This document shows, in pieces, positions 1 to 5,302 of a stretch of DNA of 64,000 nucleotides; position 1 is the first letter of the stretch, and each line of letters begins with the position of its first letter. The position numbers and the translations under genes are program-made. Under the pieces are notes generated by a model, which was given only the letters and a program-made list of their open reading frames with translations, was not told the DNA's origin and made no database searches. The stretch comes from a virus, in the IMG/VR virus record IMGVR_UViG_3300031566_000016, positions 11,154-75,153 of that record; one strand, given 5' to 3'.

Positions 1-812
1 AGCGCCATGTCCCCGATCCACTGGTAACCGCTGCCCGCCAGCGCCGCGCACACTGCGAGGCCATGCGCGCGGTTCACGCCGAAGCTATCGTCAATGATGC
101 GCCCATGGGCGACGCCGAGGGCGTCCACCTCCGCGCGCACCCTCAGCGGGTCGCGCGTCCGCACTTTCGTCCCGAAGACCGCCGGCGCCGCGCAGTACGC
201 GCAGGCATAGGGACACCCCCGCTGGGTGGCGATCATGCCACGCAGGAAGTCGGGGTACTTCTCGTGGCCGATCACGGCGTCGCGCGCGGGGAGGTAGCGG
301 TCGAGGTCGTCATGTCCCAGTGAGAATAGCGGGTCTGTTTCCTGCGTCTCGAACGCGCTGGCTGCAAACTCCCAATCTCCTTCCCCCGCTACCACACAGT
401 CAAAACAGCCCGACTCTGCCTCCTCGTCCGGCATCAGCGACGGGTGTATCCCTCCCGCCACCGTCCTGATCCCCCGCCTCTTCGCCATCTTCGCGAATTG
501 GTGCGCCGCCGCCCAGTCCGCCGTCGTGTAGCTGATCCCCACCACATCCGGTTGCCACGAGTCGAGCAGGTCCCCGAACGGCGCGCAGATGTCGGCCGTC
601 AGCGGCGCTACGTTCATCTCGCCCAGCACCACCGGCCCGTTGGGCAACGGTTCTGGATTGGATACGTCTCCGTGGTAGATCAGGACCTCGTGCCCGCGCT
701 CCTGCAGCATCGCGGCCACGTACATCGCGCCAAGGGGGTACGTCTGATAGACCCGGCTACCGAGCAGGCTGGCAAAGTCAGGTTTGGCCAAAAGAACGCG
801 GAGCTGCTTCAC
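1..812 (-). CDS. B12-binding radical SAM protein (class B methyltransferase-like), truncated by window edge
   Basis: Not in ORF track. Manual translation from GTG at 812 (overlaps upstream TGA): MKQLRVLLAKPDF...YPLGAMYVAAMLQERGHEV (cobalamin-binding N-terminus), then TQRGCPYACAYC (CxxxCxxC at 192-215) and IIDDSF. Confidence 0.88.
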   Translation of the reverse strand, partial: MKQLRVLLAKPDFASLLGSRVYQTYPLGAMYVAAMLQERGHEVLIYHGDVSNPEPLPNGPVVLGEMNVAPLTADICAPFGDLLDSWQPDVVGISYTTADWAAAHQFAKMAKRRGIRTVAGGIHPSLMPDEEAESGCFDCVVAGEGDWEFAASAFETQETDPLFSLGHDDLDRYLPARDAVIGHEKYPDFLRGMIATQRGCPYACAYCAAPAVFGTKVRTRDPLRVRAEVDALGVAHGRIIDDSFGVNRAHGLAVCAALAGSGYQWIGDMA

Positions 813-1402
813 GATAGTCCTTTCTTCACGATGTACAGGCTGTTTCCGTCCGCTGCCTCCGTGGAATGGGTGCGGTACTGAATCTCACAGTTGCTGAAGG
901 ACCCCAACTCGTCCCCGCGCGGCTGGTAGAAGCGTATCTGCGAGGCCCCGCGCCCCGCCATGAGCGCATCCCAGTCCGCCACGCTGTAGTCGCGCCCGTG
1001 GTGCCACTCGTTGAGCCCCTGGTGGACCGGCACAGACAGAAGCAGGGTCCCTCCTGGCGCCGTCAACTCCATGAGCTTGGCCAGTCCCGACTCCATGTCG
1101 TCGAGATGTTCCAGCGTCTCCAGGCAGACCACCGTGTCGAATGGGTCCTGTGCGCTCAGATCCTCGATGCGACTCTCGCGGAAGTGTACCGTCGGCCCGT
1201 GCCACTGGTAGGCCTCGCCAGACACGTCTACCGCCCACACCTCGCTGGCCACCTTTGCCAGCATGGCGCTGCCGTATCCGATCCCGCACCCCGCGTCGAG
1301 CACCCGCTTTCCCACGCACCACTTGAGCGCCCACACGTAGCGCACGAGGTGCTGCTGGATCGTCACGATGGAACTGCTGAAGGTCATCCGCTCGCCGGTC
1401 AT
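809..1402 (-). CDS. Class I SAM-dependent methyltransferase
   Basis: VLDAGCGIGYG motif I; FDTVVCLETLEHL; PGGTLLLSVP. Confidence 0.9.
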   Translation of the reverse strand: MTGERMTFSSSIVTIQQHLVRYVWALKWCVGKRVLDAGCGIGYGSAMLAKVASEVWAVDVSGEAYQWHGPTVHFRESRIEDLSAQDPFDTVVCLETLEHLDDMESGLAKLMELTAPGGTLLLSVPVHQGLNEWHHGRDYSVADWDALMAGRGASQIRFYQPRGDELGSFSNCEIQYRTHSTEAADGNSLYIVKKGLS

Positions 1403-1623
1403 GATTCACCTCGCCCGGTATGCCACTGATCTCCCACCACGAACCACCATAGGCCACAAATCATTGCCAACATGCTGACATCTCCCATGATAACAACTCC
1501 CCAAGCCTGCCAGCCATGACCTCTGGCTACATTTACTCCTACCCATAAGAGAATCATGGCGCAGATGGTGATAACCAGGATGGCCACCAGACTGACAACT
1601 CTTTCCGCATTAGGTGTTGCCAT
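1399..1623 (-). CDS. Small two-TM membrane protein
   Basis: Two hydrophobic segments; overlaps both neighbours; visibly lower GC. Confidence 0.6.
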   Translation of the reverse strand: MATPNAERVVSLVAILVITICAMILLWVGVNVARGHGWQAWGVVIMGDVSMLAMICGLWWFVVGDQWHTGRGES

Positions 1624-2962: not shown

Positions 2963-3201
2963 GCGGTCCCCTCCGACACCAGGTGGTTGCCCGGGCCCGG
3001 CCCGGTGTCGCCACGCTCTGTCCACCGTTCAACAGTGCCGTCTGCCCGCAGAAGATCACCGCATTCATCGCAATGACGATTGGTGTCTGTCTTGAAGATT
3101 GTTGGGCGAAAAGGCCTCTGCCTGCGCCAATGCCCTCCTACGCCAGGATGCTCTGTCCAGACGAAGGGGCGTCTCTTGCAGCTACAAATCATCTCAGCCA
3201 T
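2959..3201 (-). CDS. Small Cys-containing hypothetical protein
   Basis: CSC and CDEC motifs; fills gap with overlaps at both ends. Confidence 0.5.
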   Translation of the reverse strand: MAEMICSCKRRPFVWTEHPGVGGHWRRQRPFRPTIFKTDTNRHCDECGDLLRADGTVERWTERGDTGPGPGNHLVSEGTA

Positions 3202-5302
3202 CTGCCATCGCACCTCCTGCCATTACTCGGTCCACAATGGCCATCCACTGTCGCTGCTCCCGCTCCCACGTCCGCTCCCGCGTCAGCCGCACCCCGTTGC
3301 GTGCCAGCTTCTCCCGCAGCGTCGGTTCCTCGAACACGCGCGTCACCGCCGCCACGATCCCTGCCGTGATCTCCTGCCCCAGCGCCGGCCTCGTCTTCGT
3401 GTCCATCCCGCGCGCGATGAACTCCGCGGTCGGGATGTTCGGCACCAGCAGCAAGTCCTCATCGTCCACCGCCACGTCGCTCACGCCGATCGGCGTCGCC
3501 ACCAGCGGCGTCCCGCACGCCATGGCCTCCAGATCGGTCAGACTGAAGCCCTCGATCAGCGACGGCCGCACGAAGCACGAGACGCTGTTAAGCAACCTTC
3601 GCAGTTCGTTCGGATCGTAGGTCTTCACGTGCCGCACCTTGCACGGCCACCTCGGCGCCGTCTGCCCCACCACCACGACCTCCAGGTCTGCATACCGTCG
3701 CGCCAACTCCAGCACCGCCGCCTCCGCATAGTCCTGCCCCGTGAACCATACCGGGGCGTTTTTGCGAATCATCATCAACGAGTGCGGCCACTTGCGCTCT
3801 AGAAACCAGTCGGGGTAGAAGATCAGATTGTCCACCGCGTTGTCAATCTGCCCCGCGATCTCCATGCCGTATTCCTCGGCGAAGCCGCGCATGTGGTTGG
3901 CGATGATGACATGCTGGTAGCCGGGGGTGCGGAAGTTGGCCTCCACCGTTTTCGTAGCCTCGATGTCCCACTTCGGCTCGTCGCTCTGGATCAACGCCAG
4001 CCGGTGCGAGGCCTTGATCTTCGCCCCGATGGGCAGCGTCGCATGGTAGTTCGCCACTACCATGTCGTAGGGCGGTTCGATCGTGTTCTGCGTCAGCCGC
4101 CGCACGAAACTCCAATCGGTCCATTCGCCCCGCTTCCACTCGTTGAACGAGTTCACCGACACTTCCCATCCCGCCTCGTACATCGCGTGCATCATGTGGT
4201 AGCACACCTTCACACCACCATGACACCCGAGCGAAGCCATCATCCACAGTACCCGTCGCGGCTTCTCAGGCCCGCGTGGAGCGACTTTCAGCACCGAGTA
4301 GGGCACAGGGGCCATCGGAAAGGTACTTAGGTTCGCGTGCCCGTAGTCCGGTATCGCCGCATAGCCTCGCCGGTCCTCCCCATAGTGGCAGCACATCACC
4401 TGCGGGTCCAGGTAGAGCTGGTGCCCCAGCGCCGCCGCCTCCGCGCAAAGATGGTCGTCCTCGCCGCCGCCCCCGTCCACGATCCCCGTCAGTTCCTCCG
4501 GCTGCCAGTGTACCTGCTCCAGCATCTCGCGCTTCATCAGCAGACACCCGAACCCGGACATGGCGATCTTACGCAACCCCTCGGTCGCGATCTGCTGCGG
4601 TCGCAGTAGCGGTTGCCCGAAGCCATCTCGGGCAATCACGCTGTCCGGCTTGCGGCTCGGCACCACGCCGCTCACCAGAGGCTGCCCATGCGCCGCCATG
4701 GCCTCTGCGGCGTCCTCAGGCACCACCACGTCGCAGTCCACCCACAAGGTGAACTCTCCCCCCACCTTGAGGTCCAGCAGCGCCCTGCGCGTCTCCTCGC
4801 GAAGCAGGGCGACGATCCCGCTGTGCCACTGGTTGTCGCGGCTGACGCTCAGGTCCACCTCGATGCTGCTCAGGGGCCCGTCCCAGTGGCGCGCCACCAG
4901 CCGTCGGCTCAGCTTGCTCGGGCCGTTGTAGGTGACGTGGAGCACCTTGTCGCCCTCCCAACGCAGGCGCCGAAAGGCCACGAGCACCTCGGGCAAGACG
5001 TAGGCCTTGGCGTCGGTCACGATGGTTGTGATGATGAGGGGATTGGTGAGGTCGGCAGGAAGGCTGACCTGCGGAACCCCGGTGCGCACGACGGCTACGA
5101 TGCTGGGGCCGCTGCCCGGCTTGCCGCCAGGAGTGCGCGGGGGCGATGACGATGTCAGCGGTGGCGTCAGCGAGAGCATACGCGGTATGCTCATCTTCGA
5201 CTCCTTGGTCTCGGGCTGTGGCGGTGGTGCGGCGGGTGTGCCTACGACGGACCTGGTGTGGCGGCGCGGCGGGGGCCTGCTACTGCGGCTGTTGCGGCGC
5301 AT
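3194..5302 (-). CDS. Bifunctional glycosyltransferase (GT-A/GT2-like + GT-B/GT4-like)
   Basis: WVDCDVV DxD motif, GFGCLLM, GEDDHLC (GT-A); GGVKV and PSLIEGFSLTDLEAMACGTP (GT4 E-x7-E); start uncertain. Confidence 0.9.
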   Translation of the reverse strand: MRRNSRSSRPPPRRHTRSVVGTPAAPPPQPETKESKMSIPRMLSLTPPLTSSSPPRTPGGKPGSGPSIVAVVRTGVPQVSLPADLTNPLIITTIVTDAKAYVLPEVLVAFRRLRWEGDKVLHVTYNGPSKLSRRLVARHWDGPLSSIEVDLSVSRDNQWHSGIVALLREETRRALLDLKVGGEFTLWVDCDVVVPEDAAEAMAAHGQPLVSGVVPSRKPDSVIARDGFGQPLLRPQQIATEGLRKIAMSGFGCLLMKREMLEQVHWQPEELTGIVDGGGGEDDHLCAEAAALGHQLYLDPQVMCCHYGEDRRGYAAIPDYGHANLSTFPMAPVPYSVLKVAPRGPEKPRRVLWMMASLGCHGGVKVCYHMMHAMYEAGWEVSVNSFNEWKRGEWTDWSFVRRLTQNTIEPPYDMVVANYHATLPIGAKIKASHRLALIQSDEPKWDIEATKTVEANFRTPGYQHVIIANHMRGFAEEYGMEIAGQIDNAVDNLIFYPDWFLERKWPHSLMMIRKNAPVWFTGQDYAEAAVLELARRYADLEVVVVGQTAPRWPCKVRHVKTYDPNELRRLLNSVSCFVRPSLIEGFSLTDLEAMACGTPLVATPIGVSDVAVDDEDLLLVPNIPTAEFIARGMDTKTRPALGQEITAGIVAAVTRVFEEPTLREKLARNGVRLTRERTWEREQRQWMAIVDRVMAGGAMADG

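Follow-up and report, generated by a model that had tools for sequence, protein, structure and literature searches.

A stretch of 64,000 nucleotides from an uncultured soil virus was found to carry, directly after its tail genes, a minus-strand operon of glycan enzymes that extends ~9.8 kb past the last tail gene. The stretch, hereafter the window, comprises bases 11154-75153 of the 75,153-bp linear IMG/VR record IMGVR_UViG_3300031566_000016 (record coordinate = window coordinate + 11153). The operon totals five glycosyltransferase (GT) domains, three class I S-adenosylmethionine (SAM) methyltransferases (MTases) and one B12-binding radical SAM enzyme (rSAM), plus an inserted DNA methylase. 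Sequence comparisons support the view that this cassette is a phage-borne sugar pathway in a late, structural operon, rather than a host island or a chimera. As to its target, we favour cytoplasmic glycosylation of virion proteins with a methylated glycan, a reading that we regard as evenly poised.

The 11 kb left of the window were also read (L002, in record coordinates). CheckV estimates the record to be ~77% complete, so that absences within it are not final. The cassette and the gene that precedes it are listed in the order of transcription; coordinates are those of the window unless the record is named.

5333-6874, minus strand: last tail or fibre-like gene, 513 aa, with internal ~20-aa repeats; role assigned by synteny, nine genes downstream of the tape measure gene
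3194-5194, minus strand: fusion of a GT-A domain (Anp1/GT2-like, DCD motif) and a GT4 domain (EX7E), 666 aa from M37; assigned by Pfam, an AlphaFold2 (AF2) model and the ribosome-binding site
2959-3213, minus strand: Cys84, an 84-aa cysteine-containing open reading frame (ORF; CSC...CDEC), doubtful gene, overlapping both neighbours in ATGA fashion
2189-2962, minus strand: MTase3, third class I SAM methyltransferase, 257 aa from M22, with the motif I-like IMDFGCGPW; assigned by the ESM Atlas
1623-2192, minus strand: MT206, second class I SAM methyltransferase, 189 aa from M18, with VLEAGCGCG; Pfam Methyltransf_23/11
1399-1623, minus strand: TM74, a 74-aa two-transmembrane ORF of atypical composition, with two hydrophobic segments
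809-1402, minus strand: MT197, first class I SAM methyltransferase, 197 aa, with VLDAGCGIG; Pfam Methyltransf_23/11/12/25 over cut-offs
-444 to 812 (record 10709-11965), minus strand: B12-binding radical SAM enzyme, 418 aa, with its first 270 aa in the window (3-812)
record 9942-10712, minus strand: N6/N4 DNA methylase with DPPY; PF01555, 117 bits
record 8857-9945, minus strand: Capsule_synth transferase resembling KpsC/WbbB (Kps-like), 362 aa; PF05159, 64.8 bits
record 7895-8857, minus strand: GT4-like transferase, 320 aa; PF13692/PF00534; conserved partner of the rSAM
record ~7565-7890, minus strand: two tiny ORFs in the 370-nt gap between GT4 and GT2
record 6620-7522, minus strand: GT2 transferase, ~300 aa; PF00535, 109 bits

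Eleven genes form a chain on one strand with 4-nt ATGA/GTGA or 1-nt overlaps at most junctions, and the operon of this chain also holds the tape measure, capsid, portal and terminase genes. ATGA or GTGA overlaps are found at Cys84/MTase3, MTase3/MT206, TM74/MT197, MT197/rSAM, rSAM/DNA methylase and DNA methylase/Kps-like; the MT206/TM74 and Kps-like/GT4 junctions overlap by 1 nt. A preliminary description of the window, made from its letters, had proposed seven translationally coupled genes that begin 30 bp after the fibre-like gene and continue beyond the window. The ORF listing and Pfam matches confirm the seven ORFs, the junction sequences bear out the coupling, and the cluster does continue to the left with the DNA methylase, the Capsule_synth-like protein, GT4 and GT2. 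The 30-bp gap had to be revised. The longest ORF of the fusion reaches 5302 (3194-5302, 702 aa), but its most likely predicted start is M37 (window 5194), an ATG preceded by AAGGAG with a 6-nt spacer and also the first residue of the fusion sequence in the ESM Atlas; with this start, the gap is ~138 nt. Starts were likewise corrected to M18 (2192) in MT206 (longest ORF 1623-2243) and to M22 (2962) in MTase3 (longest ORF 2189-3025).

Because the enzyme families of the cassette are typical of bacterial polysaccharide loci, one explanation is that bacterial lipopolysaccharide or exopolysaccharide DNA was joined to a phage contig, either as a host island or prophage flank or by chimeric assembly. 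This explanation seems extremely unlikely on several grounds. GC content (0.63-0.64) and GC at third codon positions (GC3, 0.77-0.88) are the same in the cluster as in the structural genes, and uniform over the fibre/cluster boundary. An 8.5-kb Logan contig covers 3468-9000 without any difference, bridging the fibre/GT junction, and a contig from a soil sample of another study covers 5032-5437 across the same junction. Phage-type genes lie on either side, and the closest relatives of the rSAM and of the GT fusion are on viral or phage-sized contigs. Syntenic host loci, a prophage boundary and a chimera had been raised in the preliminary description; a search of 185,579 species-representative genomes turned up no prophage copy and no host locus, and its best rSAM match was 25-35% identical.

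DNA words of the region are present in soil metagenome runs from four studies. In related soil populations, most of the variant sites listed for MT197 and MTase3 (15 of 20, by our own count) are third codon positions, a bias that fits purifying selection. Over window 2401-2700 and 3301-3600, contig depth in each of the three soil runs exceeded that of neighbouring bins by a factor of ~2.5 to 8, probably because conserved motifs in the MTase3 and GT4 (EX7E) regions attract contigs of other organisms.

An alignment-based scan of IMG/VR retrieved three contigs with close relatives of the rSAM (L003, L004 and L005), and gene order around the rSAM was compared in them. L003, whose rSAM is 67% identical, is syntenic: it holds the GT fusion, MTase3 (57% identity), an MT197 orthologue (45%), the rSAM and the Kps-like (52%), GT4 (59%) and GT2 (44%) genes, and it is devoid of Cys84, TM74 and the DNA methylase. 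An insert of ~4.6 kb in L003 contains a further MTase, RmlD, an RmlC-like cupin, a LAGLIDADG endonuclease and an RmlB-like dehydratase. The endonuclease, a LAGLIDADG/helix-turn-helix ORF of homing type (L003:4060-5019), sits between the RmlC-like and RmlB-like genes.

L004 and L005 (rSAM identities 52% and 50%) are related to each other, and nothing beyond the cassette is detectably common to them and this phage. Their block consists of a GT4 gene (455 and 478 aa, respectively), MTases in L004, the rSAM and another GT4 gene (333 and 326 aa), with an SDR epimerase/dehydratase added in L004. The block is flanked on one side by long fibre-like proteins and on the other by genes for terminase, portal and protease-capsid, and sits just upstream of the terminase. 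A DNA methylase adjoins the core in L005. Since GT4-rSAM-GT4 is kept beside structural genes in L003, L004 and L005, it can be considered the conserved core of the cassette, and gene order suggests that this core appears to move between unrelated phages.

Beyond these contigs, the rSAM family is made of ~40 cluster representatives with 41-72% identity, all of them from metagenome assemblies (contigs of 1-85 kb), after which identity drops to <=32%; among the matches listed in a scan of metagenome contigs, rSAM relatives were at <=33%. Searches with tblastn against 50,697 phage records gave no match for the rSAM or GT4 and one weak match each for the GT fusion and the Kps-like protein, with an uninformative Rhizobium phage context. 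No megablast match to 12 kb of the region was found among GenBank phages. Distant rSAM homologue loci (L151, L152 and L070) adjoin RmlB/RmlD-like, epimerase, GT2 or MTase genes. Sugar chemistry is thus well supported by the Rml-type and epimerase genes in the cassettes of relatives, and the phage sugar pathway put forward in the preliminary description is upheld by these genes together with the uniform composition, the bridged junction and the location of relatives on viral contigs.

Judged from sequence, the cassette stands out by its phage-restricted B12-rSAM family, its portable GT4-rSAM-GT4 core, its KpsC-like transferase and how many MTases it has. The rSAM scores 66 bits against PF02310 (cut-off 32.1) and 47.6 bits against PF04055 (cut-off 29.5); the complete protein is thus, as first described from its in-window part, a cobalamin-binding type of radical SAM enzyme with a CPYACAYC motif. 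The motif occupies residues 200-207, and its three cysteines are invariant in 35 relatives. Cobalamin binding itself is putative, and is suggested by the N-terminal Rossmann-type domain.

An N-terminal Rossmann B12 domain, a CxxxCxxC core and a length class of ~420-460 aa are shared with the class B enzymes GenK, GenD1/GntE, MoeK5 and MgmA/QCMT and with their cobalamin-free relative AprD4. Unlike characterised class B subfamilies, however, the rSAM reaches no NCBIfam threshold, and its family is confined to phage-type contigs. All NCBIfam scores are far under the cut-offs; the best is ApyD, an enzyme for peptides that are made by ribosomes and modified after translation (RiPPs), with 91.7 bits vs 750, followed by AprD4 with 87 vs 500. 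By profile, the closest solved proteins are AprD4 (PDB 6fd2, 1e-32), which matches the radical SAM core alone, and MgmA/QCMT (PDB 9ccb, 5e-26), a B12-dependent protein glutamine C-methylase whose match, beginning at residue 77, extends into the B12 domain. AprD4 acts on sugars as a C3' diol dehydratase and reportedly does not bind cobalamin, a precedent for domains of this kind that may be cobalamin-free; sugar-acting methylases of class B include GenK, GenD1/GntE and MoeK5 (PMC12931638).

Our leading guess for the rSAM reaction is C-methylation of a sugar, with deoxygenation and protein methylation as possible outcomes. A tentative proposal is that this phage-restricted family, encoded between two GT4 genes, may carry out an undescribed radical tailoring of a virion-bound glycan, for instance C-methylation of an unactivated carbon, and that virion maturation would then depend on cobalamin.

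A different explanation is that the rSAM, perhaps with the MTases, acts on something other than a glycan: a protein side chain (in RiPP-like fashion, or in a virion protein by C-methylation of the MgmA kind) or else a small molecule, while the GTs serve a separate purpose. The partial match to a RiPP enzyme as best NCBIfam hit and the match of MgmA/QCMT, second among solved relatives, over both the B12 and radical SAM domains are in line with this possibility, and so is L005, which retains the rSAM though no homologue of the class I MTases of this phage was detected there. We nevertheless consider it rather unlikely: two GT4 genes flank the rSAM in all the loci compared (L003, L004 and L005), the closest outgroups are the loci with Rml-like, epimerase, GT2 or MTase neighbours mentioned above, and no conserved gene resembling a RiPP precursor peptide adjoins the rSAM.

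The fusion of a GT-A and a GT-B domain, also anticipated in the preliminary description, was confirmed by different means for each half. The GT4 half exceeds the cut-offs of PF13692 (56.8 bits) and PF00534 (40.3 bits) and carries the EX7E motif as EGFSLTDLE. A match to PF20706 ('GT4-conflict') was set aside because it overlaps the stronger GT1 matches and adds nothing. The N-terminal GT-A half has no direct Pfam match. An exhaustive HMMER search retrieved 517 relatives of this half, 50 of which were aligned; 27 of the 50 match Anp1, 14 match GT2 (Glycos_transf_2), and the DCD motif (D153, D155) is invariant or nearly so. An AF2 model built from the 50-relative alignment reached a predicted local distance difference test score (pLDDT) of 84.8, and Foldseek matched it with probability 1.0 to COLGALT1 (a collagen hydroxylysine galactosyltransferase), LH3, Mimivirus R699, Mnn9, SpsA and STIV A197. 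Protein-acting transferases, namely the collagen hydroxylysine galactosyltransferase, LH3 and, putatively, Mimivirus R699, are the best structural analogues, in line with a protein as acceptor, and the model also matches many GT-A proteins from uncultured Caudovirales. Modelling of the whole 666-aa fusion from 6 sequences gave a pLDDT of 52 and was not used. The fusion architecture is kept in 5 relatives with 59-72% identity.

Three class I MTases without DNA-MTase motifs had been proposed, and this proposal stood. MT197 and MT206 are assigned by Pfam; MTase3 has no Pfam match and is assigned by the ESM Atlas, where it resembles Methyltransf_23/11 clusters from phages and bacteria, with many viral ones among them (feature score 0.95, structural TM score 0.65). 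A motif scan for DPPY/NPPY was negative for all three. In L004, the MT206 orthologue (9342-10022) is split into two ORFs of 91 and 134 aa, which may reflect a frameshifted pseudogene or an assembly error. A defence-system reading of these genes was discarded, as PADLOC gave generic MTase-domain similarity only.

The two small ORFs described as a cysteine protein and a two-transmembrane protein do exist as ORFs, and TM74 does contain two hydrophobic segments; their status as genes did not stand as well. GC3 is 0.62 in Cys84 and 0.51 in TM74, compared with 0.77-0.88 in their neighbours, and neither has a homologue in the cassettes of relatives. Because of this atypical composition and the lack of homologues, Cys84 and TM74 are doubtful or foreign: they may be recent insertions or else not genes. 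Cys84 matched no family in protein family searches.

Left of the window, the PF05159 match of the Kps-like protein (cut-off 20) spans profile positions 123-279 of 310, and its C-terminal half has weak direct matches to KpsC and WbbB chains in the PDB (E 2e-4 to 2e-3). The protein thus resembles the KpsC/KpsS and WbbB beta-Kdo transferases (PDB 6mgc, 8fuw, 5fa0) in exceeding the Capsule_synth cut-off, but differs from KpsC/WbbB in that only ~150 residues align, with E around 1e-4 to PDB chains. No gene for synthesis of the donor CMP-Kdo was found in the ~77%-complete record. The setting also differs, since the phage record yielded no KpsMT exporter, lipid-acceptor machinery or flippase (searches for PF02397 and PF01943; ABC families had no separate search). 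GT2 has GtrB-like PHROG matches. The tiny ORFs between GT4 and GT2 would encode a hydrophobic peptide of 36 aa and a highly basic one of 55 aa, the stop of the latter overlapping the GT2 start. Past GT2 lie small membrane proteins that resemble a lysis region, and then a YlqD-family protein (PF11068, 52 bits; L002:3546-3992), an unusual phage cargo.

Midway through the operon, the DNA methylase is tied to its neighbours through ATGA overlaps. Because it is absent from the syntenic cassette of L003, we consider it a passenger insertion. Its presence in the operon, and that of another methylase beside the L005 core, nonetheless call attention to DNA hypermodification, in which the GTs and tailoring enzymes would decorate hydroxymethylated bases of phage DNA. 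Phage GTs are described as building glycans on DNA in work by Pyle et al. 2024, as cited in PMC12619734, and a radical SAM enzyme takes part in thymidine hypermodification (PMC8989533). We hold this possibility to be very unlikely here. A hydroxymethylase of the thymidylate synthase family (PF00303) was not found in the 75-kb record in a search whose control matched 10 of 14 genomes and that did not extend to 5-HMUDK or aGPT-Pplase. The known DNA-modifying radical SAM enzyme is SPL-like and not of the B12 type (PMC8989533). The passenger status of the methylase points in the same direction, and Rml-type deoxysugar genes and a KpsC-like transferase suggest chemistry of the polysaccharide type.

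The remaining question is whether the glycan is placed on the virion or on the host. Under the virion-glycosylation reading, the pathway might operate as follows:
(i). The five soluble GT domains (the Anp1-like GT-A, two GT4s, the KpsC/WbbB-like transferase and GT2) would build a short oligosaccharide in the cytoplasm from host nucleotide sugars.
(ii). The three class I MTases would methylate this glycan, most likely on oxygen.
(iii). The rSAM would tailor a sugar in one further radical step, which is most likely the methylation of an unactivated carbon and less likely deoxygenation or epimerisation.
(iv). The acceptor would most likely be one or more virion proteins made concurrently from the same operon, as in the mycobacteriophages Corndog, Che8 and Myrna.
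(v). The biological role may be shielding or adsorption.

A competing explanation is that the cassette remodels the host surface, altering an envelope glycan (O-antigen, capsule, glycolipid, or a glycan of the S-layer or flagella) during infection or lysogeny and thereby blocking superinfection or re-adsorption to debris. We view this as a possibility to be taken seriously, though not a probable one. A tyrosine integrase (49652-50389) indicates that the phage may be temperate, and the slot downstream of the tail fibres is a classical site of lysogenic-conversion morons. A KpsC/WbbB-like transferase and a GT2 with GtrB-like matches are typical of envelope glycan pathways, and distant cellular homologues of the rSAM often lie near GT2 and NDP-sugar genes. 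Furthermore, fibre-linked GT/rSAM islands of pelagimyophages have been interpreted by their authors as tools for host O-chain modification (PMC7029224). On the other side, no transmembrane segment is predicted in any cassette enzyme, and no initiating phosphoglycosyltransferase (Bac_transf, PF02397), Wzx flippase (PF01943), polymerase or transporter was found in the ~77%-complete record, in which no separate search was made for PF00953, Wzy or ABC families. The genes are chained to the late virion operon with no promoter gap of their own save the ~138 nt before the GT fusion, and the core of L004 and L005 is placed just upstream of the terminase, with fibre-like genes on one side and the head module on the other. 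These features speak for the virion as the target, and so does the precedent of mycobacteriophages, which have GTs and an O-methyltransferase within the structural operon (PMC4351075; PMC11600133; PMC12363180).

Several observations weigh against glycosylation of the virion. Those that speak for the host surface, namely the integrase, the moron slot and the interpretation of the pelagimyophage islands, belong here as well. The upstream fibres had been described as Ser/Thr-rich candidate acceptors; however, their Ser+Thr content is only 13-21% (13% in the 513-aa gene), and none of 28 structural ORFs has the Ser/Thr-rich C-terminal tail of known mycobacteriophage acceptors. The cassette GTs show no similarity to those of Corndog or Che8 at E<=1e-3. 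AprD4, which among solved proteins is nearest to the rSAM core, is neither a methylase nor a cobalamin binder (PMC12931638).

Comparison with known systems places the cassette near those of mycobacteriophages. In Corndog, gp35-gp38 encode an O-methyltransferase and three GTs within the structural operon, between portal and protease (PMC4351075), and PMC11600133 and PMC12363180 cite Freeman et al. 2023 for glycosylation of capsid and tail tube. Like the cassettes of Corndog, Che8 and Myrna, the one described here combines soluble GTs with SAM MTases, co-directional within a virion structural operon and with predicted co-expression with virion genes, in a high-GC siphovirus whose portal and capsid are weakly similar to those of actinophages. 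In contrast, tblastn of the GT fusion, GT4 and the Kps-like protein against the 50,697 phage records gave no mycobacteriophage match at E<=1e-3. The cassette is also much larger than that of Corndog (five GT domains and three MTases, with a B12-rSAM and a KpsC/WbbB-like transferase) and lies after the tail genes, not in the head module; its product is a predicted one.

A second likeness, by description, is to the host recognition cluster of pelagimyophages and cyanomyophages, T4-like marine myophages with islands of 35-45 kb (PMC7029224). Those islands also lie by tail-fibre genes and hold several GTs, sugar-nucleotide genes and swappable radical SAM cassettes; here, however, the carrier is a soil siphovirus and the genes form a compact coupled operon of ~9.8 kb.

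The rest of the record is that of a divergent siphovirus, in which all genes from the terminase through the glycan cluster lie on the minus strand. Landmark genes are the following:

31641-33239, minus strand: terminase, resembling T4-type TerL (~25% identity)
29636-31144, minus strand: portal, ~23% identity to portals of Gordonia and Arthrobacter phages
26550-27590, minus strand: capsid, 33% identity over half its length to capsids of Mycobacterium phages
18696-21455, minus strand: tape measure protein
49652-50389: tyrosine recombinase/integrase, short (245 aa); PF00589, 135 bits

Candidate tail-tube ORFs lie at 21934-22506 and 22837-23988, and the distal tail proteins at 5333-11256. Actinophage signals are weak similarities of portal, capsid and also primase, and the origin of the record is soil. 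Fowlmouth, the phage with the best capsid match, has no annotated GT gene in its first 45 kb (the structural region). An Rfam search of the record found nothing.

Additional observations were made outside the cassette. The 513-aa fibre-like protein has no Pfam or PHROG family, and the same is true of the one encoded at window 8807-9736; both contain internal tandem repeats, of a ~20-aa VVTAGEGELVSHTPV type and a GSLGTGL type. No family matches the 387-aa ORF at 40260-41423. Two separate SSB-family genes are present (window 37008-37616 and 61326-61961), as are a 675-aa PrimPol-DnaB helicase fusion (window 56018-58045) and, besides the methylase of the glycan operon, a second N6/N4 DNA methyltransferase (window 38121-39635). 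At the extreme right of the record, a 460-aa ORF (window 62547-63929) is the sole gene outside the cassette common with L003 (L003:16061-16831), where it lies ~4 kb downstream of the cassette; a circularly permuted genome, with its ends at those of the record, would be compatible with this arrangement.

To our knowledge, virion glycosylation by phage enzymes has been demonstrated in a few mycobacteriophages only, where it alters antibody recognition. If the favoured reading is true, virion glycosylation would extend to uncultured soil phages, with chemistry new to virus particles, namely several methylations, a transferase of Kdo type and a radical step dependent on B12. Were the more tentative proposal on the rSAM to hold, this enzyme would be the first that depends on cobalamin and is devoted to virion decoration, and maturation of these soil phages would rely on host cobalamin. 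GT4-rSAM-GT4 is a compact three-gene unit, tractable for heterologous expression, that could reveal a new sugar-modifying radical SAM reaction. The core could also serve to test whether it and the host's supply of cobalamin are needed for phage infectivity, host range or immune shielding.

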